Of a DNA stretch of 64,000 bases, positions 5,760 to 35,755 are shown piece by piece. The translations under genes and the position numbers were made by a program. Where the stretch lies: NCBI GenBank assembly GCA_964016885.1, contig OZ024742.1:113956001-114020000 (forward strand). Direction: 5' to 3'. The stretch comes from Eledone cirrhosa (taxonomy: Eukaryota). The notes below the pieces were generated by a model. That model ran no database searches, was not told the DNA's origin, and saw only the letters and a list, made by a program, of their open reading frames with translations. Position 1 is the first letter of the stretch; the number at the start of each line of letters is the position of its first letter.

Positions 5760-6430
5760 TGTTACGTAATGGAGTTCGTCGAGAATATGCACATACAACT
5801 GTAAACATATACATGCAGGGAATGCGTGAACAGGCTATAATGGGGCATGTCACTGTGGGTGAGACAGAATGCCTTATTAATGTATGATACGGGACTGAAT
5901 ATCCGTGAATGTTGTGCCACCGTGTCCCGGCTCATGCGATGTTGTTGCCTAGGATTACGTGCCAAGTCCGATAGGCAGCATCGGTTATGTTGACTCACCC
6001 CACAGGGCATACATAGTCAACAAGGTTTGGTGTCTGATCCCTTGGAACCGAGCCGCAGTTTGGACCGGCGTCCGCTTACCAACATGCCTTTAGCTTGGGC
6101 TGTAGGGTTGCCTCCGTGCAGAGAATGTCACCTTCTCTGGTATCTGCATGTCATTATACTCTCCAATTTTAGCTTTACCGCATCATCCTTCAATCTTACT
6201 ATCGCCATGGCCTCGGTTAGGCATAGCCTACTCTTCCTGTTTCCAGCCGAATATGCATTTGCATGTTGAATGATACTCCAGTTGAGATCATACGGAATGC
6301 CGTTGTCTTTCTAGTCCCATATTAGGTCCGTTAGCCTAGTGGAGTGTCTCTTGCTCGGTCCTTGAAAGAGTTTGGGTGATTATACATCCTCGATTTAAAG
6401 GTCGTGGATGTTGCGCCTATGTAGGTGTGT
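5760..6430 (-). mobile_element. Penelope-like element 3' fragment (GIY-YIG endonuclease tail and pLTR region)
   Basis: Minus strand reads YIGATSTTFKSRMYNH...RHSTRLTDLIWD*KDNGIPYDLNWSII, parallel to the GIY-YIG tails at 10381-10878 and 36769-37062. Confidence 0.7.
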
Positions 6431-10204: not shown

Positions 10205-11386
10205 TAAGGAACATGGTTATACGGAACAGGAAGGACAACCGTACGAACGCGCATGCATAGAAACACGTTACTTCACACAGGCAATACTAAAATGCGTGCG
10301 AGATTTGTAAGGGAGATAACTGCGAAAGTCCGAAAAGTGTTTAGTTGATGTTCTTGTAATGATGATGTTCTTGTAATGATTCAATCCGGAGATTTGTAGT
10401 TATGCAAGAGTTCTTTCGAGACGTGTTCACAACGTGTGAAAAATTCATTTCTCGCGTTTAAGCAATCACTAATGTATAATCTCTTCCGAATATTTATTCG
10501 TCCATCAATACATAGTCCACACGAGGGATTTCCCCTTGCGTATGGCTTGGAATTAGTGATGGCTTTCCATTGAATGGAGTAGTCGATATTTGAGTCCTTG
10601 TCGGGCCATACGTGGCACGCAAGCTTCGTGGATGAACGTGTGTCCGGGTACCTAAAGGTCGACTGGTGTTTCAGGATACGTTCCTTAAATCGGCCCTCCA
10701 CCATGCCCACATAGGTTTTGAAATACCGTGGTTGGTTTGGTCGTTTGGAAGTGACCACAGCTTCATAAACTACAGCGGGTGTGTTGCATTGCTGTTGAAG
10801 GGGACAAGCTTCGGGCTTACGGCAGTAGAACCGTGGTGGCGTGCTGCTCCTATGGCTGCTGGTCATGTGGGCCTTCATGTTCTTACGCAGGAGTATCCTA
10901 GTTTTACTTTGTGTCGGTTAAAGATGGAGCAGTATTTATGACCTATGGGAAAGTGTCTATCTAAGAGGGCTAGACATTTTTTGCCTACATTGGTTTTAAC
11001 GTTGAGTGAGAATGGAGGAGAGAACCAGATAGTTTGTCTATTTTTACGCTTTCTTTTCTTATTGCTGTTGTTGATAGTGGGAGAGTCGTATGGACTATGT
11101 ATTGATATACGAATAAATATTCTAAAGAGATTATGCAATAGTGATTGCCTAAACACGAGAAATGAATTCTTCACGCGTTGTCCACACGTCTCGAAACACC
11201 TCTTGAATAACTACAAAACTCCGGATTGAATCATTACAACAACATCATCATTTTCTTTAAAACTTTCGCAGTTATCTCCCTTACAGCTCTCGCACGCATT
11301 GCAATATCGCCTGTGTGAGGTGACCGGTTTCTGCATATGCGCGTTCGTACGGTTGTCCTTCCTGTTCCATATAACCATGTCCATTG

Positions 11387-11425: not shown

Positions 11426-11577
11426 GTATGGTGAACTAACTGTTGTGTAACCACTTCTACCTAACTCGTCTCATGGACTGAGTCCTCTACCACTACGGAT
11501 ATTACCCTCCAGTGTTCTCCCACTATCTATATATATATGTATATATATACACACACATATACATCAACTCAACACAC

Positions 11578-11615
<38 letters not shown>

Positions 11616-11622
<7 letters not shown>

Positions 11623-14600
11623 CAAATAACGAAACGAAATTAAATTTCGTTTCGTTTGTAACTCACTTTTGTATGACTGACGCTTAAACAATTAAGTTAA
11701 AGATGTACATCCATATATGTATACTGAAATACTAGTATGTATATGAATACACACACGTATACATATGTAGATGTACCAAGTTTTTTTCACTGGTCACTTT
11801 ACTGTGAGTGGCCAGCTATTCTGTATGTAAACCCACAGACAAACCGGTTTTTAGAGTCATACTGGTTTTTGAGGAAACACCTTTCCTCTATTCTCCAGAA
11901 AGCCAGACAAGGAATATTGAACTAGTTTCGTTGTTGTTACAACTCATCAGCAATATTTACCTATCTTCCGGCCTCTCTAGAGAATCGTAAAAGCACATAT
12001 CGTTATATGCTTTTTCTATGAAAATTAGTAGTGGGCAGACTAATTTGCATAGAGTGTGAGTAAGTACCGGTTCAACGGAGACGATAAAAACAAATAACGA
12101 AACGAAATTAAATTTCGTTTCGTTTGTAACTCACTTTTGTATGACTGACGCTTAAACAATTAAGTTAAAGATGTACATCCATATATGTATACTGAAATAC
12201 TAGTATGTATATGAATACACACACGTATACATATGTAGATGTACCAAGTTTTTTTCACTGGTCACTTTACTGTGAGTGGCCAGCTATTCTGTATGTAAAC
12301 ACACAGACAAACCGGTTTTTAGAGTCATACTGGTTTTTGAGGAAACACCTTTCCTCTATTCTCCAGAAAGCCAGACAAGGAATATTGAACTAGTTTCGTT
12401 GTTGTTACAACTCATCAGCAATATTTACCTATCTTCCAGCCTCTCTAGAGAATCGTAAAAGCACATATCGTTATATGCTTTTTCTATGAAAATTAGTAGT
12501 GGGCAGACTAATTTGCATAGAGTGTGAGTAAGTACCGGTTCAACGGAGACGATAAAAACAAATAACGAAACGAAATTAAATTTCGTTTCGTTTGTAACTC
12601 ACTTTTGTATGACTGACGCTTAAACAATTAAGTTAAAGATGTACATCCATATATGTATACTGAAATACTAGTATGTATATGAATACACACACGTATACAT
12701 ATGTAGATGTACCAAGTTTTTTTCACTGGTCACTTTACTGTGAGTGGCCAGCTATTCTGTATGTAAACACACAGACAAACCGGTTTTTAGAGTCATACTG
12801 GTTTTTGAGGAAACACCTTTCCTCTATTCTCCAGAAGCCAGACAAGGAATATTGAACTAGTTTCGTTGTTGTTACAACTCATCAGCAATATTTACCTATC
12901 TTCCGGCCTCTCTAGAGAATCGTAAAAGCACATATCGTTATATGCTTTTTCTATGAAAATTAGTAGTGGGCAGACTAATTTGCATAGAGTGTGAGTAAGT
13001 ACCGGTTCAACGGAGACGATAAAAACATATAACGAAACGAAATTAAATTTCGTTTCGTTTGTAACTCACTTTTGTATGACTGACGCTTAAACAATTAAGT
13101 TAAAGATGTACATCCATATATGTATACTGAAATACTAGTATGTATATGAATACACACACGTATACATATGTAGATGTACCAAGTTTTTTTCACTGGTCAC
13201 TTTACTGTGAGTGGCCAGCTATTCTGTATGTAAACACACAGACAAACCGGTTTTTAGAGTCATACTGGTTTTTGAGGAAACACCTTTCCTCTATTCTCCA
13301 GAAAGCCAGACAAGGAATATTGAACTAGTTTCGTTGTTGTTACAACTCATCAGCAATATTTACCTATCTTCCGGCCTCTCTAGAGAATCGTAAAAGCACA
13401 TATCGTTATATGCTTTTTCTATGAAAATTAGTAGTGGGCAGACTAATTTGCATAGAGTGTGAGTAAGTACCGGTTCAACGGAGACGATAAAAACAAATAA
13501 CGAAACGAAATTAAATTTCGTTTCGTTTGTAACTCACTTTTGTATGACTGACGCTTAAACAATTAAGTTAAAGATGTACATCCATATATGTATACTGAAA
13601 TACTAGTATGTATATGAATACACACACGTATACATATGTAGATGTACCAAGTTTTTTTCACTGGTCACTTTACTGTGAGTGGCCAGCTATTCTGTATGTA
13701 AACACACAGACAAACCGGTTTTTAGAGTCATACTGGTTTTTGAGGAAACACCTTTCCTCTATTCTCCAGAAAGCCAGACAAGGAATATTGAACTAGTTTC
13801 GTTGTTGTTACAACTCATCAGCAATATTTACCTATCTTCCGGCCTCTCTAGAGAATCGTAAAAGCACATATCGTTATATGCTTTTTCTATGAAAATTAGT
13901 AGTGGGCAGACTAATTTGCATAGAGTGTGAGTAAGTACCGGTTCAACGGAGACGATAAAAACAAATAACGAAACGAAATTAAATTTCGTTTCGTTTGTAA
14001 CTCACTTTTGTATGACTGACGCTTAAACAATTAAGTTAAAGATGTACATCCATATATGTATACTGAAATACTAGTATGTATATGAATACACACACGTATA
14101 CATATGTAGATGTACCAAGTTTTTTTCACTGGTCACTTTACTGTGAGTGGCCAGCTATTCTGTATGTAAACACACAGACAAACCGGTTTTTAGAGTCATA
14201 CTGGTTTTTGAGGAAACACCTTTCCTCTATTCTCCAGAAAGCCAGACAAGGAATATTGAACTAGTTTCGTTGTTGTTACAACTCATCAGCAATATTTACC
14301 TATCTTCCGGCCTCTCTAGAGAATCGTAAAAGCACATATCGTTATATGCTTTTTCTATGAAAATTAGTAGTGGGCAGACTAATTTGCATAGAGTGTGAGT
14401 AAGTACCGGTTCAACGGAGACGATAAAAACAAATAACGAAACGAAATTAAATTTCGTTTCGTTTCTAACTCACTTTTGTATGACTGACGCTTAAACAATT
14501 AAGTTAAAGATGTACATCCATATATGTATACTGAAATACTAGTATGTATATGAATACACACACGTATACATATGTAGATGTACCAAGTTTTTTTCACTGG

Positions 14601-17600
14601 TCACTTTACTGTGAGTGGCCAGCTATTCTGTATGTAAACACACAGACAAACCGGTTTTTAGAGTCATACTGGTTTTTGAGGAAACACCTTTCCTCTATTC
14701 TCCAGAAGCCAGACAAGGAATATTGAACTAGTTTCGTTGTTGTTACAACTCATCAGCAATATTTACCTATCTTCCGGCCTCTCTAGAGAATCGTAAAAGC
14801 ACATATCGTTATATGCTTTTTCTATGAAAATTAGTAGTGGGCAGACTAATTTGCATAGAGTGTGAGTAAGTACCGGTTCAACGGAGACGATAAAAACAAA
14901 TAACGAAACGAAATTAAATTTCGTTTCGTTTTGTAACTCACTTTTGTATGACTGACGCTTAAACAATTAAGTTAAAGATGTACATCCATATATGTATACT
15001 GAAATACTAGTATGTATATGAATACACACACGTATACATATGTAGATGTACCAAGTTTGTTTCACTGGTCACTTTACTGTGAGTGGCCAGCTATTCTGTA
15101 TGTAAACACACAGACAAACCGGTTTTTAGAGTCATACTGGTTTTTGAGGAAACACCTTTCCTCTATTCTCCAGAAAGCCAGACAAGGAATATTGAACTAG
15201 TTTCGTTGTTGTTACAACTCATCAGCAATATTTACCTATCTTCCGGCCTCTCTAGAGAATCGTAAAAGCACATATCGTTATATGCTTTTTCTATGAAAAT
15301 TAGTAGTGGGCAGACTAATTTGCATAGAGTGTGAGTAAGTACCGGTTCAACGGAGACGATAAAAACAAATAACGAAACGAAATTAAATTTCGTTTCGTTT
15401 GTAACTCACTTTTGTATGACTGACGCTTAAACAATTAAGTTAAAGATGTACATCCATATATGTATACTGAAATACTAGTATGTATATGAATACACACACG
15501 TATACATATGTAGATGTACCAAGTTTTTTTCACTGGTCACTTTACTGTGAGTGGCCAGCTATTCTGTATGTAAACACACAGACAAACCGGTTTTTAGAGT
15601 CATACTGGTTTTTGAGGAAACACCTTTCCTCTATTCTCCAGAAAGCCAGACAAGGAATATTGAACTAGTTTCGTTGTTGTTACAACTCATCAGCAATATT
15701 TACCTATCTTCCGGCCTCTCTAGAGAATCGTAAAAGCACATATCGTTATATGCTTTTTCTATGAAAATTAGTAGTGGGCAGACTAATTTGCATAGAGTGT
15801 GAGTAAGTACCGGTTCAACGGAGACGATAAAAACAAATAACGAAACGAAATTAAATTTCGTTTCGTTTGTAACTCACTTTTGTATGACTGACGCTTAAAC
15901 AATTAAGTTAAAGATGTACATCTATATATGTATACTGAAATACTAGTATGTATATGAATACACACACGTATACATATGTAGATGTACCAAGTTTTTTTCA
16001 CTGGTCACTTTACTGTGAGTGGCCAGCTATTCTGTATGTAAACACACAGACAAACCGGTTTTTAGAGTCATACTGGTTTTTGAGGAAACACCTTTCCTCT
16101 ATTCTCCAGAAAGCCAGACAAGGAATATTGAACTAGTTTCGTTGTTGTTACAACTCATCAGCAATATTTACCTATCTTCCGGCCTCTCTAGAGAATCGTA
16201 AAAGCACATATCGTTATATGCTTTTTCTATGAAAATTAGTAGTGGGCAGACTAATTTGCATAGAGTGTGAGTAAGTACCGGTTCAACGGAGACGATAAAA
16301 ACAAATAACGAAACGAAATTAAATTTCGTTTCGTTTGTAACTCACTTTTGTATGACTGACGCTTAAACAATTAAGTTAAAGATGTACATCCATATATGTA
16401 TACTGAAATACTAGTATGTATATGAATACACACACGTATACATATGTAGATGTACCAAGTTTGTTTCACTGGTCACTTTACTGTGAGTGGCCAGCTATTC
16501 TGTATGTAAACACACAGACAAACCGGTTTTTAGAGTCATACTGGTTTTTGAGGAAACACCTTTCCTCTATTCTCCAGAAAGCCAGACAAGGAATATTGAA
16601 CTAGTTTCGTTGTTGTTACAACTCATCAGCAATATTTACCTATCTTCCGGCCTCTCTAGAGAATCGTAAAAGCACATATCGTTATATGCTTTTTCTATGA
16701 AAATTAGTAGTGGGCAGACTAATTTGCATAGAGTGTGAGTAAGTACCGGTTCAACGGAGACGATAAAAACAAATAACGAAACGAAATTAAATTTCGTTTC
16801 GTTTCTAACTCACTTTTGTATGACTGACGCTTAAACAATTAAGTTAAAGATGTACATCCATATATGTATACTGAAATACTAGTATGTATATGAATACACA
16901 CACGTATACATATGTAGATGTACCAAGTTTTTTTCACTGGTCACTTTACTGTGAGTGGCCAGCTATTCTGTATGTAAACACACAGACAAACCGGTTTTTA
17001 GAGTCATACTGGTTTTTGAGGAAACACCTTTCCTCTATTCTCCAGAAAGCCAGACAAGGAATATTGAACTAGTTTCGTTGTTGTTACAACTCATCAGCAA
17101 TATTTACCTATCTTCCGGCCTCTCTAGAGAATCGTAAAAGCACATATCGTTATATGCTTTTTCTATGAAAATTAGTAGTGGGCAGACTAATTTGCATAGA
17201 GTGTGAGTAAGTACCGGTTCAACGGAGACGATAAAAACAAATAACGAAACGAAATTAAATTTCGTTTCGTTTCTAACTCACTTTTGTATGACTGACGCTT
17301 AAACAATTAAGTTAAAGATGTACATCCATATATGTATACTGAAATACTAGTATGTATATGAATACACACACGTATACATATGTAGATGTACCAAGTTTTT
17401 TTCACTGGTCACTTTACTGTGAGTGGCCAGCTATTCTGTATGTAAACACACAGACAAACCGGTTTTTAGAGTCATACTGGTTTTTGAGGAAACACCTTTC
17501 CTCTATTCTCCAGAAGCCAGACAAGGAATATTGAACTAGTTTCGTTGTTGTTACAACTCATCAGCAATATTTACCTATCTTCCGGCCTCTCTAGAGAATC

Positions 17601-20600
17601 GTAAAAGCACATATCGTTATATGCTTTTTCTATGAAAATTAGTAGTGGGCAGACTAATTTGCATAGAGTGTGAGTAAGTACCGGTTCAACGGAGACGATA
17701 AAAACAAATAACGAAACGAAATTAAATTTCGTTTCGTTTGTAACTCACTTTTGTATGACTGACGCTTAAACAATTAAGTTAAAGATGTACATCCATATAT
17801 GTATACTGAAATACTAGTATGTATATGAATACACACACGTATACATATGTAGATGTACCAAGTTTGTTTCACTGGTCACTTTACTGTGAGTGGCCAGCTA
17901 TTCTGTATGTAAACACACAGACAAACCGGTTTTTAGAGTCATACTGGTTTTTGAGGAAACACCTTTCCTCTATTCTCCAGAAAGCCAGACAAGGAATATT
18001 GAACTAGTTTCGTTGTTGTTACAACTCATCAGCAATATTTACCTATCTTCCGGCCTCTCTAGAGAATCGTAAAAGCACATATCGTTATATGCTTTTTCTA
18101 TGAAAATTAGTAGTGGGCAGACTAATTTGCATAGAGTGTGAGTAAGTACCGGTTCAACGGAGACGATAAAAACAAATAACGAAACGAAATTAAATTTCGT
18201 TTCGTTTGTAACTCACTTTTGTATGACTGACGCTTAAACAATTAAGTTAAAGATGTACATCCATATATGTATACTGAAATACTAGTATGTATATGAATAC
18301 ACACACGTATACATATGTAGATGTACCAAGTTTTTTTCACTGGTCACTTTACTGTGAGTGGCCAGCTATTCTGTATGTAAACACACAGACAAACCGGTTT
18401 TTAGAGTCATACTGGTTTTTGAGGAAACACCTTTCCTCTATTCTCCAGAAAGCCAGACAAGGAATATTGAACTAGTTTCGTTGTTGTTACAACTCATCAG
18501 CAATATTTACCTATCTTCCGGCCTCTCTAGAGAATCGTAAAAGCACATATCGTTATATGCTTTTTCTATGAAAATTAGTAGTGGGCAGACTAATTTGCAT
18601 AGAGTGTGAGTAAGTACCGGTTCAACGGAGACGATAAAAACAAATAACGAAACGAAATTAAATTTCGTTTCGTTTGTAACTCACTTTTGTATGACTGACG
18701 CTTAAACAATTAAGTTAAAGATGTACATCCATATATGTATACTGAAATACTAGTATGTATATGAATACACACACGTATACATATGTAGATGTACCAAGTT
18801 TGTTTCACTGGTCACTTTACTGTGAGTGGCCAGCTATTCTGTATGTAAACACACAGACAAACCGGTTTTTAGAGTCATACTGGTTTTTGAGGAAACACCT
18901 TTCCTCTATTCTCCAGAAAGCCAGACAAGGAATATTGAACTAGTTTCGTTGTTGTTACAACTCATCAGCAATATTTACCTATCTTCCGGCCTCTCTAGAG
19001 AATCGTAAAAGCACATATCGTTATATGCTTTTTCTATGAAAATTAGTAGTGGGCAGACTAATTTGCATAGAGTGTGAGTAAGTACCGGTTCAACGGAGAC
19101 GATAAAAACAAATAACGAAACGAAATTAAATTTCGTTTCGTTTGTAACTCACTTTTGTATGACTGACGCTTAAACAATTAAGTTAAAGATGTACATCCAT
19201 ATATGTATACTGAAATACTAGTATGTATATGAATACACACACGTATACATATGTAGATGTACCAAGTTTTTTTCACTGGTCACTTTACTGTGAGTGGCCA
19301 GCTATTCTGTATGTAAACACACAGACAAACCGGTTTTTAGAGTCATACTGGTTTTTGAGGAAACACCTTTCCTCTATTCTCCAGAAAGCCAGACAAGGAA
19401 TATTGAACTAGTTTCGTTGTTGTTACAACTCATCAGCAATATTTACCTATCTTCCGGCCTCTCTAGAGAATCGTAAAAGCACATATCGTTATATGCTTTT
19501 TCTATGAAAATTAGTAGTGGGCAGACTAATTTGCATAGAGTGTGAGTAAGTACCGGTTCAACGGAGACGATAAAAACAAATAACGAAACGAAATTAAATT
19601 TCGTTTCGTTTCTAACTCACTTTTGTATGACTGACGCTTAAACAATTAAGTTAAAGATGTACATCCATATATGTATACTGAAATACTAGTATGTATATGA
19701 ATACACACACGTATACATATGTAGATGTACCAAGTTTTTTTCACTGGTCACTTTACTGTGAGTGGCCAGCTATTCTGTATGTAAACACACAGACAAACCG
19801 GTTTTTAGAGTCATACTGGTTTTTGAGGAAACACCTTTCCTCTATTCTCCAGAAGCCAGACAAGGAATATTGAACTAGTTTCGTTGTTGTTACAACTCAT
19901 CAGCAATATTTACCTATCTTCCGGCCTCTCTAGAGAATCGTAAAAGCACATATCGTTATATGCTTTTTCTATGAAAATTAGTAGTGGGCAGACTAATTTG
20001 CATAGAGTGTGAGTAAGTACCGGTTCAACGGAGACGATAAAAACAAATAACGAAACGAAATTAAATTTCGTTTCGTTTGTAACTCACTTTTGTATGACTG
20101 ACGCTTAAACAATTAAGTTAAAGATGTACATCCATATATGTATACTGAAATACTAGTATGTATATGAATACACACACGTATACATATGTAGATGTACCAA
20201 GTTTGTTTCACTGGTCACTTTACTGTGAGTGGCCAGCTATTCTGTATGTAAACACACAGACAAACCGGTTTTTAGAGTCATACTGGTTTTTGAGGAAACA
20301 CCTTTCCTCTATTCTACAGAAAGCCAGACAAGGAATATTGAACTAGTTTCGTTGTTGTTACAACTCATCAGCAATATTTACCTATCTTCCGGCCTCTCTA
20401 GAGAATCGTAAAAGCACATATCGTTATATGCTTTTTCTATGAAAATTAGTAGTGGGCAGACTAATTTGCATAGAGTGTGAGTAAGTACCGGTTCAACGGA
20501 GACGATAAAAACAAATAACGAAACGAAATTAAATTTCGTTTCGTTTGTAACTCACTTTTGTATGACTGACGCTTAAACAATTAAGTTAAAGATGTACATC

Positions 20601-23600
20601 CATATATGTATACTGAAATACTAGTATGTATATGAATACACACACGTATACATATGTAGATGTACCAAGTTTTTTTCACTGGTCACTTTACTGTGAGTGG
20701 CCAGCTATTCTGTATGTAAACACACAGACAAACCGGTTTTTAGAGTCATACTGGTTTTTGAGGAAACACCTTTCCTCTATTCTCCAGAAAGCCAGACAAG
20801 GAATATTGAACTAGTTTCGTTGTTGTTACAACTCATCAGCAATATTTACCTATCTTCCGGCCTCTCTAGAGAATCGTAAAAGCACATATCGTTATATGCT
20901 TTTTCTATGAAAATTAGTAGTGGGCAGACTAATTTGCATAGAGTGTGAGTAAGTACCGGTTCAACGGAGACGATAAAAACAAATAACGAAACGAAATTAA
21001 ATTTCGTTTCGTTTGTAACTCACTTTTGTATGACTGACGCTTAAACAATTAAGTTAAAGATGTACATCCATATATGTATACTGAAATACTAGTATGTATA
21101 TGAATACACACACGTATACATATGTAGATGTACCAAGTTTTTTTCACTGGTCACTTTACTGTGAGTGGCCAGCTATTCTGTATGTAAACACACAGACAAA
21201 CCGGTTTTTAGAGTCATACTGGTTTTTGAGGAAACACCTTTCCTCTATTCTCCAGAAAGCCAGACAAGGAATATTGAACTAGTTTCGTTGTTGTTACAAC
21301 TCATCAGCAATATTTACCTATCTTCCGGCCTCTCTAGAGAATCGTAAAAGCACATATCGTTATATGCTTTTTCTATGAAAATTAGTAGTGGGCAGACTAA
21401 TTTGCATAGAGTGTGAGTAAGTACCGGTTCAACGGAGACGATAAAAACAAATAACGAAACGAAATTAAATTTCGTTTCGTTTGTAACTCACTTTTGTATG
21501 ACTGACGCTTAAACAATTAAGTTAAAGATGTACATCCATATATGTATACTGAAATACTAGTATGTATATGAATACACACACGTATACATATGTAGATGTA
21601 CCAAGTTTGTTTCACTGGTCACTTTACTGTGAGTGGCCAGCTATTCTGTATGTAAACACACAGACAAACCGGTTTTTAGAGTCATACTGGTTTTTGAGGA
21701 AACACCTTTCCTCTATTCTCCAGAAAGCCAGACAAGGAATATTGAACTAGTTTCGTTGTTGTTACAACTCATCAGCAATATTTACCTATCTTCCGGCCTC
21801 TCTAGAGAATCGTAAAAGCACATATCGTTATATGCTTTTTCTATGAAAATTAGTAGTGGGCAGACTAATTTGCATAGAGTGTGAGTAAGTACCGGTTCAA
21901 CGGAGACGATAAAAACAAATAACGAAACGAAATTAAATTTCGTTTCGTTTGTAACTCACTTTTGTATGACTGACGCTTAAACAATTAAGTTAAAGATGTA
22001 CATCCATATATGTATACTGAAATACTAGTATGTATATGAATACACACACGTATACATATGTAGATGTACCAAGTTTTTTTCACTGGTCACTTTACTGTGA
22101 GTAGCCAGCTATTCTGTATGTAAACACACAGACAAACCGGTTTTTAGAGTCATACTGGTTTTTGAGGAAACACCTTTCCTCTATTCTCCAGAAAGCCAGA
22201 CAAGGAATATTGAACTAGTTTCGTTGTTGTTACAACTCATCAGCAATATTTACCTATCTTCCGGCCTCTCTAGAGAATCGTAAAAGCACATATCGTTATA
22301 TGCTTTTTCTATGAAAATTAGTAGTGGGCAGACTAATTTGCATAGAGTGTGAGTAAGTACCGGTTCAACGGAGACGATAAAAACAAATAACGAAACGAAA
22401 TTAAATTTCGTTTCGTTTGTAACTCACTTTTGTATGACTGACGCTTAAACAATTAAGTTAAAGATGTACATCCATATATGTATACTGAAATACTAGTATG
22501 TATATGAATACACACACGTATACATATGTAGATGTACCAAGTTTTTTTCACTGGTCACTTTACTGTGAGTGGCCAGCTATTCTGTATGTAAACACACAGA
22601 CAAACCGGTTTTTAGAGTCATACTGGTTTTTGAGGAAACACCTTTCCTCTATTCTCCAGAAAGCCAGACAAGGAATATTGAACTAGTTTCGTTGTTGTTA
22701 CAACTCATCAGCAATATTTACCTATCTTCCGGCCTCTCTAGAGAATCGTAAAAGCACATATCGTTATATGCTTTTTCTATGAAAATTAGTAGTGGGCAGA
22801 CTAATTTGCATAGAGTGTGAGTAAGTACCGGTTCAACGGAGACGATAAAAACAAATAACGAAACGAAATTAAATTTCGTTTCGTTTGTAACTCACTTTTG
22901 TATGACTGACGCTTAAACAATTAAGTTAAAGATGTACATCCATATATGTATACTGAAATACTAGTATGTATATGAATACACACACGTATACATATGTAGA
23001 TGTACCAAGTTTGTTTCACTGGTCACTTTACTGTGAGTGGCCAGCTATTCTGTATGTAAACACACAGACAAACCGGTTTTTAGAGTCATACTGGTTTTTG
23101 AGGAAACACCTTTCCTCTATTCTCCAGAAAGCCAGACAAGGAATATTGAACTAGTTTCGTTGTTGTTACAACTCATCAGCAATATTTACCTATCTTCCGG
23201 CCTCTCTAGAGAATCGTAAAAGCACATATCGTTATATGCTTTTTCTATGAAAATTAGTAGTGGGCAGACTAATTTGCATAGAGTGTGAGTAAGTACCGGT
23301 TCAACGGAGACGATAAAAACAAATAACGAAACGAAATTAAATTTCGTTTCGTTTGTAACTCACTTTTGTATGACTGACGCTTAAACAATTAAGTTAAAGA
23401 TGTACATCCATATATGTATACTGAAATACTAGTATGTATATGAATACACACACGTATACATATGTAGATGTACCAAGTTTTTTTCACTGGTCACTTTACT
23501 GTGAGTAGCCAGCTATTCTGTATGTAAACACACAGACAAACCGGTTTTTAGAGTCATACTGGTTTTTGAGGAAACACCTTTCCTCTATTCTCCAGAAAGC

Positions 23601-24147
23601 CAGACAAGGAATATTGAACTAGTTTCGTTGTTGTTACAACTCATCAGCAATATTTACCTATCTTCCGGCCTCTCTAGAGAATCGTAAAAGCACATATCGT
23701 TATATGCTTTTTCTATGAAAATTAGTAGTGGGCAGACTAATTTGCATAGAGTGTGAGTAAGTACCGGTTCAACGGAGACGATAAAAACAAATAACGAAAC
23801 GAAATTAAATTTCGTTTCGTTTGTAACTCACTTTTGTATGACTGACGCTTAAACAATTAAGTTAAAGATGTACATCCATATATGTATACTGAAATACTAG
23901 TATGTATATGAATACACACACGTATACATATGTAGATGTACCAAGTTTTTTTCACTGGTCACTTTACTGTGAGTGGCCAGCTATTCTGTATGTAAACACA
24001 CAGACAAACCGGTTTTTAGAGTCATACTGGTTTTTGAGGAAACACCTTTCCTCTATTCTCCAGAAAGCCAGACAAGGAATATTGAACTAGTTTCGTTGTT
24101 GTTACAACTCATCAGCAATATTTACCTATCTTCCGGCCTCTCTAGAG
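11616..24147 (-). repeat. 468-bp tandem array, left arm: 27 near-identical units, each with a hammerhead on the minus strand (candidate retrozyme)
   Basis: Period of 467-468 bp is visible in the sequence and in the repeating short ORFs. The arm starts at a (TA)n tract. Confidence 0.95.
11913..11957 (-). ncRNA. Type I hammerhead ribozyme, first of 27 left-arm copies (repeats every ~468 bp)
   Basis: Reverse complement reads aatattg-CTGATGA-gttgt aaca acaac-GAAAC-ta-GTT-caatatt: 7-bp stem I, 5-bp stem II, palindromic AACTAGTT stem III. Confidence 0.88.
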
Positions 24148-27100
24148 TGAGTTACAAACGAAAAGTGAGTTACAAACGAAACGAAATTTAATTTCGTTTC
24201 GTTATTTGTTTTTATCGTCTCCGTTGAACCGGTACTTACTCACACTCTATGCAAATTAGTCTGCCCACTACTAATTTTCATAGAAAAAGCATATAACGAT
24301 ATGTGCTTTTACGATTCTCTAGAGAGGCCGGAAGATAGGTAAATATTGCTGATGAGTTGTAACAACAACGAAACTAGTTCAATATTCCTTGTCTGGCTTT
24401 CTGGAGAATAGAGGAAAGGTGTTTCCTCAAAAACCAGTATGACTCTAAAAACCGGTTTGTCTGTGTGTTTACATACAGAATAGCTGGCCACTCACAGTAA
24501 AGTGACCAATGAAAAAAACTTGGTACATCTACATATGTATACGTGTGTGTATTCATATACATAATAGTATTTCAGTATACATATATGGATGTACATCTTT
24601 AACTTAATTGTTTAAGCGTCAGTCATACAAAAGTGAGTTACAAACGAAACGAAATTTAATTTCGTTTCGTTATTTGTTTTTATCGTCTCCGTTGAACCGG
24701 TACTTACTCACACTCTATGCACATTAGTCTGCCCACTACTAATTTTCATAGAAAAAGCATATAACGATATGTGCTTTTACGATTCTCTAGAGAGGCCGGA
24801 AGATAGGTAAATATTGCTGATGAGTTGTAACAACAACGAAACTAGTTCAATATTCCTTGTCTGGCTTTCTGGAGAATAGAGGAAAGGTGTTTCCTCAAAA
24901 ACCAGTATGACTCTAAAAACCGGTTTGTCTGTGTGTTTACATACAGAATAGCTGGCCACTCACAGTAAAGTGACCAGTGAAAAAAACTTGGTACATCTAC
25001 ATATGTATACGTGTGTGTATTCATATACATACTAGTATTTCAGTATACATATATGGATGTACATCTTTAACTTAATTGTTTAAGCGTCAGTCATACAAAA
25101 GTGAGTTACAAACGAAACGAAATTTAATTTCGTTTCGTTATTTGTTTTTATCGTCTCCGTTGAACCGGTACTTACTCACACTCTATGCAAATTAGTCTGC
25201 CCACTACTAATTTTCATAGAAAAAGCATATAACGATATGTGCTTTTACGATTCTCTAGAGAGGCCGGAAGATAGGTAAATATTGCTGATGAGTTGTAACA
25301 ACAACGAAACTAGTTCAATATTCCTTGTCTGGCTTTCTGGAGAATAGAGGAAAGGTGTTTCCTCAAAAACCAGTATGACTCTAAAAACCGGTTTGTCTGT
25401 GTGTTTACATACAGAATAGCTGGCCACTCACAGTAAAGTGACCAGTGAAAAAAACTTGGTACATCTACATATGTATACGTGTGTGTATTCATATACATAA
25501 TAGTATTTCAGTATACATATATGGATGTACATCTTTAACTTAATTGTTTAAGCGTCAGTCATACAAAAGTGAGTTACAAACGAAACGAAATTTAATTTCG
25601 TTTCGTTATTTGTTTTTATCGTCTCCGTTGAACCGGTACTTACTCACACTCTATGCAAATTAGTCTGCCCACTACTAATTTTCATAGAAAAAGCATATAA
25701 CGATATGTGCTTTTACGATTCTCTAGAGAGGCCGGAAGATAGGTAAATATTGCTGATGAGTTGTAACAACAACGAAACTAGTTCAATATTCCTTGTCTGG
25801 CTTTCTGGAGAATAGAGGAAAGGTGTTTCCTCAAAAACCAGTATGACTCTAAAAACCGGTTTGTCTGTGTGTTTACATACAGAATAGCTGGCCACTCACA
25901 GTAAAGTGACCAGTGAAAAAAACTTGGTACATCTACATATGTATACGTGTGTGTATTCATATACATACTAGTATTTCAGTATACATATATGGATGTACAT
26001 CTTTAACTTAATTGTTTAAGCGTCAGTCATACAAAAGTGAGTTACAAACGAAACGAAATTTAATTTCGTTTCGTTATTTGTTTTTATCGTCTCCGTTGAA
26101 CCGGTACTTACTCACACTCTATGCAAATTAGTCTGCCCACTACTAATTTTCATAGAAAAAGCATATAACGATATGTGCTTTTACGATTCTCTAGAGAGGC
26201 CGGAAGATAGGTAAATATTGCTGATGAGTTGTAACAACAACGAAACTAGTTCAATATTCCTTGTCTGGCTTTCTGGAGAATAGAGGAAAGGTGTTTCCTC
26301 AAAAACCAGTATGACTCTAAAAACCCGTTTGTCTGTGTGTTTACATACAGAATAGCTGGCCACTCACAGTAAAGTGACCAGTGAAAAAAACTTGGTACAT
26401 CTACATATGTATACGTGTGTGTATTCATATACATACTAGTATTTCAGTATACATATATGGATGTACATCTTTAACTTAATTGTTTAAGCGTCAGTCATAC
26501 AAAAGTGAGTTACAAACGAAACGAAATTTAATTTCGTTTCGTTATTTGTTTTTATCGTCTCCGTTGAACCGGTACTTACTCACACTCTATGCAAATTAGT
26601 CTGCCCACTACTAATTTTCATAGAAAAAGCATATAACGATATGTGCTTTTACGATTCTCTAGAGAGGCCGGAAGATAGGTAAATATTGCTGATGAGTTGT
26701 AACAACAACGAAACTAGTTCAATATTCCTTGTCTGGCTTTCTGGAGAATAGAGGAAAGGTGTTTCCTCAAAAACCAGTATGACTCTAAAAACCGGTTTGT
26801 CTGTGTGTTTACATACAGAATAGCTGGCCACTCACAGTAAAGTGACCAGTGAAAAAAACTTGGTACATCTACATATGTATACGTGTGAGTATTCATATAC
26901 ATACTAGTATTTCAGTATACATATATGGATGTACATCTTTAACTTAATTGTTTAAGCGTCAGTCATACAAAAGTGAGTTACAAACGAAACGAAATTTAAT
27001 TTCGTTTCGTTATTTGTTTTTATCGTCTCCGTTGAACCGGTACTTACTCACACTCTATGCAAATTAGTCTGCCCACTACTAATTTTCATAGAAAAAGCAT

Positions 27101-28353
27101 ATAACGATATGTGCTTTTACGATTCTCTAGAGAGGCCGGAAGATAGGTAAATATTGCTGATGAGTTGTAACAACAACGAAACTAGTTCAATATTCCTTGT
27201 CTGGCTTTCTGGAGAATAGAGGAAAGGTGTTTCCTCAAAAACCAGTATGACTCTAAAAACCGGTTTGTCTGTGTGTTTACATACAGAATAGCTGGCCACT
27301 CACAGTAAAGTGACCAGTGAAAAAAACTTGGTACATCTACATATGTATACGTGTGTGTATTCATATACATACTAGTATTTCAGTATACATATATGGATGT
27401 ACATCTTTAACTTAATTGTTTAAGCGTCAGTCATACAAAAGTGAGTTACAAACGAAACGAAATTTAATTTCGTTTCGTTATTTGTTTTTATCGTCTCCGT
27501 TGAACCGGTACTTACTCACACTCTATGCAAATTAGTCTGCCCACTACTAATTTTCATAGAAAAAGCATATAACGATATGTGCTTTTACGATTCTCTAGAG
27601 AGGCCGGAAGATAGGTAAATATTGCTGATGAGTTGTAACAACAACGAAACTAGTTCAATATTCCTTGTCTGGCTTTCTGGAGAATAGAGGAAAGGTGTTT
27701 CCTCAAAAACCAGTATGACTCTAAAAACCGGTTTGTCTGTGTGTTTACATACAGAATAGCTGGCCACTCACAGTAAAGTGACCAGTGAAAAAAACTTGGT
27801 ACATCTACATATGTATACGTGTGTGTATTCATATACATACTAGTATTTCAGTATACATATATGGATGTACATCTTTAACTTAATTGTTTAAGCGTCAGTC
27901 ATACAAAAGTGAGTTACAAACGAAACGAAATTTAATTTCGTTTCGTTATTTGTTTTTATCGTCTCCGTTGAACCGGTACTTACTCACACTCTATGCAAAT
28001 TAGTCTGCCCACTACTAATTTTCATAGAAAAAGCATATAACGATATGTGCTTTTACGATTCTCTAGAGAGGCCGGAAGATAGGTAAATATTGCTGATGAG
28101 TTGTAACAACAACGAAACTAGTTCAATATTCCTTGTCTGGCTTTCTGGAGAATAGAGGAAAGGTGTTTCCTCAAAAACCAGTATGACTCTAAAAACCGGT
28201 TTGTCTGTGTGTTTACATACAGAATAGCTGGCCACTCACAGTAAAGTGACCAGTGAAAAAAACTTGGTACATCTACATATGTATACGTGTGTGTATTCAT
28301 ATACATACTAGTATTTCAGTATACATATATGGATGTACATCTTTAACTTAATT

Positions 28354-28358
<5 letters not shown>
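24146..28358 (+). repeat. 468-bp tandem array, right arm: 9 units in inverted orientation
   Basis: Reverse complement of the left-arm unit. It ends at ...aattgttta|(TA)n. Confidence 0.95.
24342..24386 (+). ncRNA. Type I hammerhead ribozyme, first of 9 right-arm copies
   Basis: aatattg-CTGATGA-gttgtaacaacaac-GAAAC-ta-GTT-caatatt. Confidence 0.88.
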
Positions 28359-28396
<38 letters not shown>

Positions 28397-28404
28397 TTTC
28401 TTTT

Positions 28405-28830
28405 TTTAGTCTCATTCCTTCTCAGCCCCACACTCGTCAATATTGTCTCAACCTCCTGCATCAAATCTTCTGCCGCCTTCACTGTATTTGTCACCAAATC
28501 TATGTCGTCGGCAAATTCAACATCCGATATCTTCTTCGCCTTAACTCTCCTGCTCTGAGCCGGTGCTACAGTAAAGGTAGAGTCCCGGTTGTTCATGATT
28601 GTTGTAGTGGTGTCTGTGCTGCTGTATGGGTCTCAGACTTGGACAGTGACCAAGAAACTCACTTAAATGAGAATGCTGAGGATGGCTCTGAACATTAATC
28701 AGTATACACTGAGGATGTAAAACTGCAAAAGTCAGCTCAAAAGTGACACAGAGGAGACTGAGTTTAGCTGGGCATGCTCACCGACATCCAGAGTTGACAT
28801 TGCACTCAGTGTTCCTGTGGGATAACAGAA
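28405..28830. mobile_element. RTE-like LINE fragment with an inverted 5' piece
   Basis: Minus 28405-28580 reads ISDVEFADDIDL...VGLRRNETK (RT). Plus 28585-28830 reads SVLLYGSQTWT and QRRLSLAGHAHRHPE...FLW. Confidence 0.75.
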
Positions 28831-28949: not shown

Positions 28950-31934
28950 ATCAGGTGAAATATTTGTCGATGACAAGGGCAAAACATCATCCAGGTGGTC
29001 GTCACGCAACATTGTTCTTAAATAACTTTTAGTTTATTTCATTTTGGAAAAAAGTTGTTCACAAGCATATGTACTTCCAAATAATGATATCATCAGTTTC
29101 GTATTAGTCAAGATGTTTTTATATTTTCCGCTCGGCAATATATATTTCTTGCAGAAGTCAGCAGTGGATTCGAACTGAAATTTCGATTTCAAAGATTCGT
29201 CGCCTGTAAGTCAATTAACTCCAACTTATATTCTTCTGCCACTTGCGCTACATCTGTTTCGTAGGGAGTACCAAATAACTTAAATAGCGTTCCATATTGC
29301 CGGAAGTCATTAAAACGAGAGGAAAACTCGCTTCTCAAATCATTAATAGAGCTCACAAAGATGTCTGGTATTATATCTCTCTTGTGATTTTGGAGACTTG
29401 GGAAATGAGAGTAGTTTCTTTTTTGAAGTTGTGATTCCCACAGTCGAAGTTTTCTCTCAAAATGACCAAACATCTCAAATACAACCTTGTTCTTTCCTTG
29501 AAGCTCAAAATTCAAAGTGTTCATGTGGGTCGTGATGTCGACTATAAAAGCTAACTTGACAACCAACTGTGGATCCTAAAAGTAAGAATTATCTTGCTCT
29601 TTGCTCTCTAAAAACTTAGAAATCTCTTCTCTCAATGCATATACTCGTTCTATCATTTTTTTTCCGCGGCTAAGCCATCGAACATTGGAAAGTTATGTAA
29701 GGTCGCCATACTCTGATTCCAATTTGTTTTAGAAATTCTTGAAACTGGCGGTAATTTAGTCCTCTTGACAATATAAAATTCACTGTTTTCACGACAACTG
29801 CCATGATGTCCTTAAAATTCAGTGAATTTGCACATAATGCTTCTCAATGAATAATGCAATGAACTTTGATTAGTTTTTGATTAATACCGATGTGTTTTTC
29901 GAGCAATGCAACACACCCCCTTTTCTCTCCAACCATTGCTACTCCCAAAACCTTTGATAAATCCAGATTCATTTCGGTAATCCATTTTATTATGCTTTCC
30001 AAAATATCTGCTCCAGTGCTTGTGTCCTTCATAGGAATCAATCGTACAAATTCTTCCACAATATCAAATGTTGGTGTTACACCCCTCACAAACACTGCAA
30101 GTTGATAAGTATCCTTCATATATGTGGTTTCATCGATAGCAAAGGAATAATACTCCAGATTATTTAAAATGCTCTTCAAGCCACTTCTGACATTTGCTGC
30201 CACCTCTTCAATTCGCCTTGTTACTGTTCTTGCCGATAAGCTGATCGCAGAAAATAATTCCCTTTTTTCTGGACAAACAACATCTGCTACCTTCAACAAT
30301 AATTATTTGAAGAAATCTCCATCAGTAAAAGGTTTCATCCTTTCTGCAATTAGTTTTGACATCTCGTAGCTAGCCCGTGTATTTCGATCACTTTCTTCAA
30401 CTTTTCTAGTGAAAAATGATGATTGCTTTGTTACATTATTTCTCAGCCGTGCTACTTCGTTTACTCGTGCTTTTCTAGTAAAACTGTTGTAATGATTATG
30501 CTGCGTTTCATAGTGTCGTTTAATATTTGAAACTTTCTTTACGGTAATGGTTTCTTGACAAATTAAGTAAACACATTTTCCGAAGTGCTCAATGAAAAAA
30601 TAGATAAGTGTACAGCCATCGTTAAAAGTTCGGCACTCCAAATCTACTTTTCTCTTCTTAGCTTCCATATAAAAAATAGTTATGGAAAGGAAAAAGAACA
30701 AAAAGTATAATAATCAGAATGAAGAAATAAGAAACAATGAAAACAAATGTAAATTCAAATATAGTAATGCGATAAAATATGATAATTGTGAATAAATTAT
30801 ATAAAACCAGGTTTCTAACGACGCTGTTAGATCAGGGTTGCCATTTATGTTTTTAAACCACTTTTGGTCTAATTCTAATAATAATAATTCACACAATTTA
30901 TCACAAATAATTAAATAAATGTTATTATCGAATAAAGATACCTACTGTATAGTTGTTATACCATCAGACAACAAACTCAAATGAAAATACTCTGGGGAGG
31001 AAGGAACGAAGTCTTTTTTCCGGGGACAGCTTTGCCTTGTGCCGGGGGGGGGGGGGGTGCACAGCTAAGGTCAGGCAAACGAAGACGACAATAATTCACG
31101 AGTGATTTTATTGAATGACAATATGGGTATAAAAGCGAGTCATGCGAACCGTAAGGTAGTATACCTTCTAGTCGCTGACGAAAATGCATACTTCCAGCCA
31201 ACATTTGTGTTTGTTGACTGGAACAAAAACACATACATGAAATCACAGGATATAATAATACAGGTGATATAATGCTTGGCGGAAAGCCCGGAACAAGATG
31301 GATAAGAGGAAATAATTGTTTCTACTTTTGGCACACGGCCATCAATTATCCCAGTGTATTACTGGTACTTTATTTTATCGACCCCGCAAGGATGAAAGGC
31401 AAAGTTAACCTCGGCGGGATTTGAAATCAGACCATAAAGGGGAATAACTCTTTGCTGCAAAGCATGGCGTCCGACCCTCTAGCGATACTGCCAATCCACC
31501 GAGGAAATAATACATGGAAAATATAATTGTTTCTACTTTTGGCACAAGGCCAGCAATTATCACAGTGCATTACTGGTACTTTATTTTATCGACCCCGTAA
31601 GGATGAAAGGCAAAATTAACCTAGGCGGGATTTGAACTCAGAATGGCAAGGGCCGTAACTCTATGCATCAAAGCATGGCGTCCGACTCTCTACCGATACT
31701 ACCAATTCACCGCCCTTAAATGGAAAATATAATAAGGTTACAAAGGTATCTGTAAATATATACGGTATGAGCAGCGATTTTTGATGGGCATCAGGTCGGC
31801 ACAACCTTGAAGTGAACTACTGTATCTGTATTCGATACTAACTAGATAATTAGTGTCCAGTGTAAGATGGCGGGCCGGATAAAAATCATTCAAGAGCCCG
31901 ATGTGGCCCGCGGGCCTGGAGTTGCCGACCCCTG
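28950..31934 (-). mobile_element. Decayed hAT DNA transposon (GTF2IRD2/SPIN/Charlie-like transposase), one terminal inverted repeat retained
   Basis: ORFs contain KKRKVD.ECR.F, C.IC.E...NIKRHY, SLSARTVTRRI, YSFAIDETT...QLAVFVRG, TGADI, HCIIH, VRWLSRG and LNFELQGK. A CAGGGGTCGGCAAC terminus lies at 31921-31934 on the minus strand. The other end is not found and the left boundary is approximate. Confidence 0.85.
31315..31720 (+). mobile_element. Two tandem copies of a SINE-like repeat nested in the hAT element
   Basis: ttgtttctacttttggcac...tactggtactttattttatcgacccc..aaggatgaaaggcaaa at ~31315 and ~31525. The same family occurs at 41997-42112 (+), 61425-61515 (-) and 7160-7222 (-). Confidence 0.8.
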
Positions 31935-33779: not shown

Positions 33780-35755
33780 TAAGGTTCCTTCTCAGTATGG
33801 TGTTGAAAGCTGCGTGTTGGGGTAACCGGCCTGCTACCACAACATAATCAACAAAAGTACCACCAAACTCTCCTACAGCACCACACCAAACTTTGCACAA
33901 AACATCGTCTCCTCTAACAACAAAAAACCCAAACCCTATGAAAGAAATAACCTAAATAGCAGTGGAGAGCCGACCAGGAGGTGCAACTGTCCTGGTGGAT
34001 CCATTTGCCCCCTCGACACCAGATGCGGAGATCGTAATGTGATCTACCAGTGCAACGTGAGGACTGGACACATCCAACAAAGCTTATATAGGATTAACCG
34101 CATGTGACTTCAAGACACAGTATACCAACACAGTATACTTTCAGAAACCCGGCCCGGCGTCACGCCACCACACTTTCGGGCCACATCTGGGACCTTAAAA
34201 ATAACAATATTAGCTACGATCTCACTGTCCAGAGCCAATTCTTGCAGGGGAGGACGTCGTCCGTGCAATTTATGCTCGGAAGAAACTTTACAAATGTTGT
34301 TTTCGACGGACCAACTCCTAAACAAGAAAGACGAACTGATAACTGCATGCAAACACGTATTTCGTAGGACTTACCTCGCCCTCAAACCCCATAATGACCC
34401 GTGGGGTAGACAAGGGCTGTAACACCCCACTTGCCGACTTTGTAATGGGTAACCGCTGCTTGCAAATGTAGACGTAAGATCTTCTTTTATATCTTTTTAT
34501 CGTTTCCTCTATATTTCCTTCTTGCCCCATCCCTTCCTAGTCCTTCCACCCAAGTCCTCCTTCTTTGTAGTCGTCCTTTTCACTTTCTCGCCCACCCGAG
34601 GCAGCCACTCGTTTCTTCGTAGCCTCAGTAACCCCACCCCCATCCCCTATTTTATGATAGAATTGGCCGACTCCGTTTTTTATAGCAGATGTGATGGACC
34701 CCAGATACTTGCTTTCTTATCCGATGGCTGCCCCATTTCCGTGCTTTCTAAATGTATTAGTGGTATATTGGCTTTTATTTCTCGTATATCAGTATTTTTT
34801 TTTTGGGGGGGGGGGGGGGGGGGAGGGTATTCTGAATTAAATTTCCGTATCAAATTTTTCATATACTTCGTACGAGCATTTATGTAGTTTGCACTAGCAT
34901 TTTTGTATCGTAACGGCACCCTTAGAGATAGTATTAGTATTCATTTTAGGCATTCTGAATTATTATTTCGTATTAGTTTATTTGTTGCAATGGGTGGTTA
35001 GTGGCCTTGTGCCTAGGGTAGAAACAATTATTTCGTATTAGTTTCGGGACTCTGAATTATTATTTGGTGGTAGTTTCTTTAGTATTTTGCCCCCCCCCCC
35101 CCCCACACACACTTGTTGACCTGTCACCGTAAGATATACTCGGTTGATTACTACTAACTCTTAAAATGGTCTCACTACAATTCCGTCCCACCTAGTAAAC
35201 TTTTCTATAGTTTAGCAGAACCAGTGAGAGACTTGATGACTGTGGTTAGGGAATAGTAACCAGAAATTTCTTTTTTTATATTTTTAACATTCTAGGTATT
35301 CTTCTATGTATTTACTCCATATTGTTTTACTTATTGTTTCGACTTCCTCCCCCTCCCCCTCCCTAGTATACATGCTTGACCTCCTGCCCTGCTGTAGTTG
35401 GCACTATCAACGCACGACTGGGTTTCCTCCACTCACTCTCCCCCTTTCTTCTACTGGCAGGTTCAGCTACCCCTTCCTTCCACAAATTGCCATGATAGAA
35501 TTATGTGTCTCAACAACAAACTTTTGACCAATCCCTGTAAGAATCACTTTTACCATATATGGAGTTACCCCCTGAGAAGCTCGGCTATTCATATACCAGG
35601 ATAATCATTTTCATTTAATCCAGAATTAGCCGTCGAAACGGCTTGAGCTCAGCCGTCGGGGTCCTACTCGTTCCTATTACCCACTCTACTACCCTAAGTA
35701 TTGAGTACTTTGGTGCGTTATGGTCCACCTGGTTCCTTACCACATTTCCTTCGGT
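33780..35755 (+). mobile_element. Decayed PLE 3' portion (GIY-YIG tail and pLTR)
   Basis: CNCPGGSICPLDTRC...VIYQC, YIGLT, TFRNPARRHATTLSGHIWDLK, CNLCSEE and LNKKDELITACKH. Hammerhead at 35567-35662. Confidence 0.75.
35567..35662 (+). ncRNA. Type I hammerhead with full stem III and one core deviation
   Basis: acccc-CTGAGAA-g..cggcta...tagccg.c-GAAACGGCT-tgagctc-AGCCGTC-ggggt. Confidence 0.7.

Follow-up and report, generated by a model that had tools for sequence, protein, structure and literature searches.

An inverted two-arm array of 468-bp units with a predicted hammerhead ribozyme: a small non-coding RNA parasite inserted at least 2,020 times in its genome

The window, i.e. the whole stretch of 64,000 nucleotides analysed here (G000:C3:113956001-114020000 of a 3.0-Gb genome), contains a block of tandem 468-bp units. 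The block is an inversion: two arms of 27 and 9 copies lie within a (TA)n run, with their ribozyme strands directed outward (Table 1). TRF describes the first arm (11616-24147) as 26.8 copies with a period of 468 and the second (24161-28358) as 9.0 copies, each with 99% matches. The arms are joined at 24147/24161 through a 13-nt templated insert, which may be either an abortive template switch or an end-joining scar. (TA)n stands on both sides of the block and, because both flanks are (TA)n, a target-site duplication of more than 4 bp is unreadable. Units are numbered here from the first base after the predicted hammerhead cut, which is position 1. The 34 full units show a mean identity of 99.8% to the commonest unit, and 14 of them are identical to it. 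Remnants of Penelope-like elements (PLEs) are also present in the window; they were named by tblastn with H1, a PLE of the same genome described below, and were left unnamed by Pfam.

The original prediction for this DNA had placed 36 hammerheads in 468-bp units in the block, and all 36 proved to be exact copies of one 45-nt stretch, 27 on the - strand and 9 on the + strand. The fold it had described was recovered as well: stem I has 7 bp, stem II has 5 bp and a 4-nt loop, stem III has 1-2 bp within an 8-nt palindrome, and the predicted cut site on the + strand lies where it had been put, after 24379. Such a minimal, palindromic stem III is of the kind reported to need dimers (PMC7229834 and PMC4209133, in the parts available). 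An Rfam search, also proposed there, gave a divided answer, with no match at the gathering score over the whole window and, in 24200-25000, a best match to Hammerhead_HH9 (37.7 bits, E 7.7e-8, Rfam by E-value) that lies below the gathering score of 52. The claim that the unit encodes no credible protein was borne out, the longest stop-free frame of the tandem unit being 57 codons in sense (19 from an ATG) and 65 in antisense (62 from an ATG). The cut-to-cut monomer listed in Table 1 is predicted to be strongly self-paired, at -147.5 kcal/mol (z -9.2 against 100 shuffles). Unit and array had also been called large for their class. Here the prediction was mistaken: published units range from 51 to 972 bp and published arrays reach 300 units (available text of bioRxiv 10.64898/2026.07.22.740005), and another arm in the same genome, at G000:C1:5738326-5752335, carries 31 hammerheads.

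Table 1. Features of the block, in positions of the window
Feature	Position	Strand	Remarks
Left (TA)n-rich target flank	11524..11615	.	
Long arm, 26.8 units, ribozyme-sense	11616..24147	-	Outer end at unit position 304 (the 'long' start site); inner end at 406
69-nt 'tail' (unit 236-304), at the long-arm outer end only	11616..11684	-	
13-bp hairpin inside the tail	11628-11656	-	
First of 27 - strand type I hammerheads	11913..11957	-	Predicted cut between 11920 and 11919
Inversion junction, 13-nt insert from unit ~254-268	24148..24160	+	18-bp duplication at 24146-24181 (TRF)
Short arm, 9.0 units, ribozyme-sense	24161..28358	+	Inner end at unit 250; outer end at the 'short' start site, 235
First of 9 + strand type I hammerheads	24342..24386	+	Predicted cut after GUU at 24379
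Single 468-nt monomer, from cut to cut	24380..24847	+	
Right (TA)n target flank	28357..28393	.	

The block in the window belongs to a dispersed family, a small non-coding RNA parasite with a predicted self-cleaving ribozyme motif that has inserted at no fewer than 2,020 places. At least 2,020 exact junctions of the long end (304) with TATATA were counted genome-wide (control 0), and a stricter pattern for the 235 end gave 147 matches. The genome holds 9,265 exact copies of the hammerhead, a search with the unit yielded 236 candidate places, of which 40 were scored, and the unit is present in 4/4 independent contig sets. Subfamilies were resolved at about 99, 97, 96 and 88% identity, with the same design in all. 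The two divergent arms and the membership in a dispersed family are both absent from the original prediction. Loci were read in three sets: 28 loci among the 150 matches listed for the unit, a set biased to long arrays; 20 regions corresponding to the first 21 of the 2,020 long-end matches; and 40 loci not read before, found within the first 46 of the 147 short-end matches.

Both ends could be read at 64 loci, and at 61 of them the end of one arm lies 304 nt past the cut and that of the other 230-235 nt past it. All 15 readable regions (of 20) picked by their long end have a short end (230-235) opposite. Among those picked by their short end, a long end is found opposite in 25 of the 26 readable (of 40), the remaining one, L133, ending at position 347. 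In the length-biased set together with the window, 21 of 23 readable loci (of 29) are mixed, the exceptions being L041 (long and long) and L044 (short and short). Some opposite arms measure just 10-20 nt. This end pattern is the 'tail' and inversion signature of PLEs, whose insertions are described as an inverted truncated copy plus a tail at one end (PMC8557442, in the part available; the tail concept is found also in PMC11167929).

Inner ends were analysed in 142 hand-curated arms (53 two-arm loci plus single arms, with L041, L076 and other complex loci excluded). They are spread round the unit, with termination about once per 1,200 nt. The cut site was passed by 110 of the 136 arms of known length, and 375 of 376 such passes carry no indel. 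No significant excess of inner ends was seen at the cut site (4 versus 1.8 expected, p 0.10; L118 has two 5' ends exactly there), at 112-123 (11 versus 3.9 expected, scan p 0.18) or elsewhere, nor was there one of symmetric fold-back junctions (9/53 versus 5.8 expected, p 0.12); apparent inner ends at position 1 were mostly an artefact of the reference cut point. The 53 junctions comprise 23 with at least 2 bases of microhomology, 18 with 0-1 and 12 with inserts. Arm lengths correlate (rho 0.47, p 0.004, in the 36 end-selected loci that fit within the fetched stretch), and 18 of the 53 two-arm loci have more than one full extra unit in both arms. Twin priming as in L1 likewise uses a pair of primers at a single target and leaves an inversion with a microhomology joint; the first arm is then predicted to stop where the second starts. 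Unlike this prediction, just 7 of 53 long arms end at 225-265, and L1-type twin priming on linear RNA is not supported.

Two sister families share the two-end design of the window's family (A), to which they are about 65-70% alike: B, with a unit of 472-506 nt and end sites at 257/311, and C, with a unit of 444 nt and end sites at 238/289, mixed in 4 of 5 readable loci. Neither has an attached ORF; no attached PLE ORF was found in 9 of 10 family-C and in 3 family-B loci, one weak remnant lying 1 kb away. Across 11 distinct hammerheads of families A, B and C, 6 of the 12 stem pairs have changed on both sides and 90% of cells pair, a level reached by 0 of 500 shuffles, with slid controls pairing at 31-57%; because the 11 are related and fall into three lineages, this count of covariation stands for few events. 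The G-C pair at the base of stem II is missing from the B and C hammerheads, and in the whole-unit consensus two-sided change is found at 20 of 81 pairs. Judged from these substitutions, the hammerhead motif is under selection, and the original reading of a young non-LTR retrozyme is supported. By sequence, the window element fits the definition of that class, having type I hammerhead units, no coding capacity, low GC and a dispersed distribution. The unit contains no RT plus GIY-YIG ORF, as an autonomous PLE would. A plant LTR retrozyme, with a type III hammerhead in LTRs and a 4-bp duplication, was ruled out by the type I fold and the lack of an LTR pair.

Alleles were then compared within and between loci. 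For the 225 units of 38 young loci, the mean number of substitutions separating two units is 0.87 when both lie in the same arm, 0.63 when they lie in opposite arms and 4.00 when they come from different loci. The 46 loci with at least four pieces represent 24 haplotypes; of their alleles, 78 are fixed, 30 are shared by some of the pieces and 130 are singletons. L074, with 22 pieces, has three alleles fixed in both arms and no singleton. In 44 two-arm loci, no position with at least two copies was fixed differently in each arm. These patterns point to a monomer bottleneck followed by immediate many-fold copying, for which a circle is the best fit. The first pass of short arms seemed to be enriched in known alleles, but this proved to be mostly an alignment artefact at 108-109.

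Some variation is of another kind. In the window, 136A>C (7 units), 262C>G (4) and a one-base deletion (4) recur every 3 to 6 units of the long arm and are absent from the short arm. Since these periodic alleles are confined to the long arm, part of its 27 copies must have been made as DNA, after or during insertion. Allele patterns of period 2 to 4, likewise in one arm only, were found at L038, L049, L058 and L063; dimer circles were considered and rejected, the period-2 alleles being in one arm only. The original prediction had offered a recent insertion or an expansion. Both apply: the block is an insertion that was later expanded.

Candidate partners are found in the same genome. N1 is a young Neptune-type PLE with a C-terminal GIY-YIG and a CX4CxxC linker, represented by a 1,176-aa frame in L090 (L090:244-3771); 59 of its 46,107 candidate places were scored and show 98-100% identity. 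Its two end sites, both in (TA)n, bound a tail of 39 nt, and 6/6 two-arm loci (25 read) have one of each. No canonical hammerhead was found in N1 or in N2, a second Neptune family. H1 is a Hydra-type PLE (758-aa frame in L161, at L161:991-3264; DKT, CxCX5C, no CCHH; defining features as in section 11 of PMC8557442, in the part available). It carries its own hammerhead, ends 22 or 91 nt after its cut and is mixed in 2 of 4 two-arm loci; its 69-nt tail equals the family A tail in length, which is suggestive only. Start sites are A-rich in H1 and U-rich in A, N1 and N2. When the unit was compared with the terminal repeats of these three PLE families, no kinship above that of shuffles was found. 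At L076, one insertion running from TA to TA combines an 88% family-A long arm, 40 nt of sense unit and a 5'-truncated N2 whose end is the short site of N2; a template switch separates the parts. At L109 a C long end is paired with an A short end. The three chimeras could alternatively be deletions between neighbouring insertions in one TA run, and because such deletions could give chimeras too, the Neptune assignment rests on one locus and the U-rich start sites; we lean, on balance, towards a Neptune-type rather than a Hydra-type partner.

Together, these results lead us to propose that the family is a non-autonomous non-LTR retrozyme moved by a PLE reverse transcriptase-endonuclease, and we give this stepwise model, as a whole, a probability of about 0.6. 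PLE-driven twin priming is highly probable, and a monomer circle is the probable template. By analogy with other retrozymes, arms would be transcribed as multimers, the hammerheads would cut as dimers, and the monomers would be ligated to 468-nt circles. A dimeric PLE protein, the putative enzyme, would then bind the RNA near the tail hairpin and nick both strands of the (TA)n target in which the insertions are seen. One 3' end would prime at 304 and the other at 230-235, the two positions at which arms end, presumably on the same RNA, as the shared alleles suggest. Both would copy round the RNA through the ribozyme junction, with a random stop about every 1,200 nt as read from arm lengths; here a circle is assumed. 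The two cDNAs would then meet head to head, with microhomology or a short templated insert at the joint, as is seen in the insertions, and some arms, including the window long arm, would later gain units by DNA-level duplication, to which the periodic one-arm alleles attest.

Several observations go against this model. At L118, the jump from position 1 back to 234 requires a linear cut RNA. Among the 52 variants of matched passes, 2 recur as mirror images in the two arms, as expected from a heterogeneous linear multimer. In the one PLE assayed, ribozyme cleavage was dispensable and uncut RNA was the main substrate (PMC11167929). The lack of unit similarity to the N1, N2 and H1 terminal repeats and the end-rule exceptions L041, L044 and L133 also count against it, and the periodic one-arm alleles (window, L038, L049, L058, L063), being DNA-made copies, speak against it as the sole source of copies.

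Such points raise the alternative that the PLE twin-primes on a linear multimer that a donor arm has produced and that stays uncut, in which case the ribozyme would be of little weight for mobility. In vitro, ribozyme mutants inserted normally and no reads ended at the cut site (PMC11167929), 8/9 Xenopus dimers were uncleaved (bioRxiv 10.64898/2026.07.22.740005, in the part available), two alleles are mirrored, and the 11 inner ends at 112-123, against 3.9 expected, could mark a transcription start, although after scanning their p is 0.18. However, without a monomer bottleneck the fixation of private alleles over whole arrays and both arms is unexplained. Moreover, 50 of the 52 variants in matched passes are unmirrored, and families that are about 65% alike have conserved the hammerhead through compensatory changes; we consider this alternative unlikely. 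It is improbable that insertions began as one or two units copied from linear RNA and that most copies arose through later slippage or unequal exchange, as in the birth of a satellite. This process, proposed for retrozymes in the available text of bioRxiv 10.64898/2026.07.22.740005, would suit 136A>C and 262C>G, found in 7 and 4 units of the window long arm and in none of the short arm, and the period-2 to -4 patterns at L038, L049, L058 and L063. Against it, the alleles form a star-like pattern (of the 160 that are not fixed, 130 are singletons), both arms exceed one full extra unit at 18 of the 53 two-arm loci, arm lengths correlate, and the long arrays L074 (apart from its fixed alleles), L113 and L121 are variant-free.

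Helentron derivatives have a terminal hairpin near one end and form tandem arrays, and the present family resembles them in both respects. A DNA-based origin, with the hammerhead as an incidental part of either a rolling-circle element of Helitron/Helentron type or a satellite derived from a MITE, is nevertheless largely excluded and very improbable: the ribozyme motif is strand-specific with covarying stems, the arms are 5'-variable and 3'-fixed with microhomology joints, and RT-encoding PLEs of the same genome have an identical anatomy. Finally, units 99.8% identical and a copy number taken from the assembly alone might suggest an assembly artefact, but alleles are unit-specific, the same design is found at 88 other regions and the unit in all four contig sets; with this anatomy repeated at dozens of further loci, an artefact is hardly credible.

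Returning to the PLE-moved retrozyme, a more specific version can be offered tentatively, at somewhat below even odds. In twin-primed rolling-circle reverse transcription, a dimeric Neptune-type enzyme without a canonical hammerhead would copy one circular RNA from two fixed sites simultaneously, at both (TA)n ends. The rule might explain PLE tails and inversions generally, and families A, B and C would be an old independent parasite and not a recent piece of the partner's terminal repeat. Young natural replicates of this family number in the thousands, its two start sites are mapped exactly, and its genome also encodes intact candidates for the enzyme, so that questions of retrozyme mobility are directly testable. 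It also illustrates how a single retrotransposition event can seed a ready-made inverted minisatellite.

The retrozyme class itself and the idea of PLEs copying circles are already in print, and circles templating more-than-unit cDNA were proposed earlier (PMC4209133 and PMC7229834, available parts). The route of animal retrozymes to new loci, the circle as template and the origin of PLE tails and inversions are stated as open in PMC11167929 and in the available parts of PMC7229834, PMC8557442 and bioRxiv 10.64898/2026.07.22.740005. A literature search, outside which lay subscription papers, Repbase and supplements, returned no paper on two-arm, two-start-site, (TA)n-targeted retrozyme insertions or on the window family. 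Nor did it return allele evidence for both arms coming from one template, figure S9 of PMC7229834 (the proposed cycle) lying outside the search.

Metazoan non-LTR retrozymes have been described by Cervera and de la Pena 2020 (PMC7229834) and by Li, Clavereau and Pollet 2026 (bioRxiv 10.64898/2026.07.22.740005). The window family resembles them in that its tandem units are non-coding and each contain one type I hammerhead, in its GC of about 35%, lack of LTRs and highly self-paired monomer, and in a genome that contains PLEs; its weak palindromic stem III is as in the axolotl HHR_Amex1. In the available parts of these two sources, published elements are head-to-tail tandems with target duplications, whereas here the insertions are inverted and two-armed; neither this inversion nor a pair of fixed start sites, a tail or a preference for (TA)n is described there. 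In Xenopus, 24/57 retrozyme families are similar to a PLE terminal repeat, and here no such similarity was found with N1, N2 and H1; dimer cleavage in vitro was seen in 1 of 9 tested (both from the available part of the 2026 study).

With EN+ PLEs of the Neptune and Hydra clades (Craig et al. 2021, PMC8557442, available part), the family shares partial tandems, an inverted 5'-truncated arm, a one-end tail and a (TA)n target. It differs in having no ORF, many full repeats in both arms and a tail of 69-74 nt, against the 30-40 nt cited. The Poseidon PAc protein, for which a dimer is predicted, nicked both strands in vitro and extended them from two internal sites bounding the tail (Frangieh et al. 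2024, PMC11167929). The tail-bounding start sites, AT-rich DNA and little primer-template homology of that system are all found again here. However, the RNA in that study was linear and start sites did not differ between strands, whereas in the family described here each event uses one site of each kind and copying proceeds beyond unit length.

The design of the family-A retrozyme, the 468-nt family of the window, is shared by its two sister families, B and C (loci L044:2317-3905, L109:2740-4762, L187, L188 and L172). In L044 an in-register switch between A and B is placed at the tail hairpin, and L109 carries the corresponding switch between C and A. A family-A arm is also joined to a Neptune-type Penelope-like element (PLE), N2, in one chimeric insertion (L076:353-4089; G000:C1:41489300 onward), which conforms to the rule that one arm ends at the long site and the other at the short site. 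N2 itself has 2,705 candidate places in the genome, 40 of which were scored, at 94-98%.

At L118:4208-4749, unit positions 1-234/235 are present as two successive copies; synthesis appears to have reached the predicted cut site, restarted at the short site and halted at the cut site again, which would be a hint, from a single locus, of ribozyme cleavage in vivo. Many independent substitutions, in different loci, cluster at unit positions 20-27, possibly a reverse-transcription error hotspot.

Further hammerhead-like motifs, several as inverted pairs, adjoin the insertions in the flanks of 12 loci (L036, L037, L039, L045, L057, L064, L074, L078, L085, L096, L136 and L140): additional ribozyme-bearing families accumulate in the same TA runs. 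At another locus (L056:931-1672), the TA sequence separating the two arms contains an unrelated palindromic insert of ~450 bp.

Other repeats of the window
Feature	Window position	Basis or detail
Decayed Hydra-type PLE remnant	6137-6367	tblastn with H1
Decayed Hydra-type PLE remnant	10507-11057	tblastn with H1
Decayed Hydra-type PLE remnant	33835-34389	tblastn with H1
Decayed Hydra-type PLE remnant	36901-38524	tblastn with H1; bracketed by inverted pair, 36145-36216 and 38716-38787
SINE-like repeat	31312-31712	211 bp
Stretches holding the LINE-like, hAT-like and Pif1 pieces	210-605, 3491-3802, 28400-28700, 29189-30713, 63200-63637

To the left of the array, at a distance of 560 bp, is one of the Hydra-type remnants. 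The Pif1 helicase fragment, matched by Pfam PF21530 at E 1e-11, is probably a Helitron remnant. By eye, we take other fragments to be LINE reverse transcriptase-like and hAT-type transposase-like, and the SINE-like repeat and microsatellite load are, we presume, reminiscent of cephalopod genomes.

Hammerheads are reported as a general feature of canonical PLEs, whereas no canonical hammerhead was found in the young, very abundant Neptune-type PLE of L079-L103, which retains an intact 1,176-aa frame and whose 3' region holds a long stretch of TG/TA microsatellite. The young Hydra-type PLE of L189-L196 differs in size from its clade, reported as under 3 kb: its units reach 5-6 kb because the 3' region holds a TA/TG microsatellite of about 2.5 kb.
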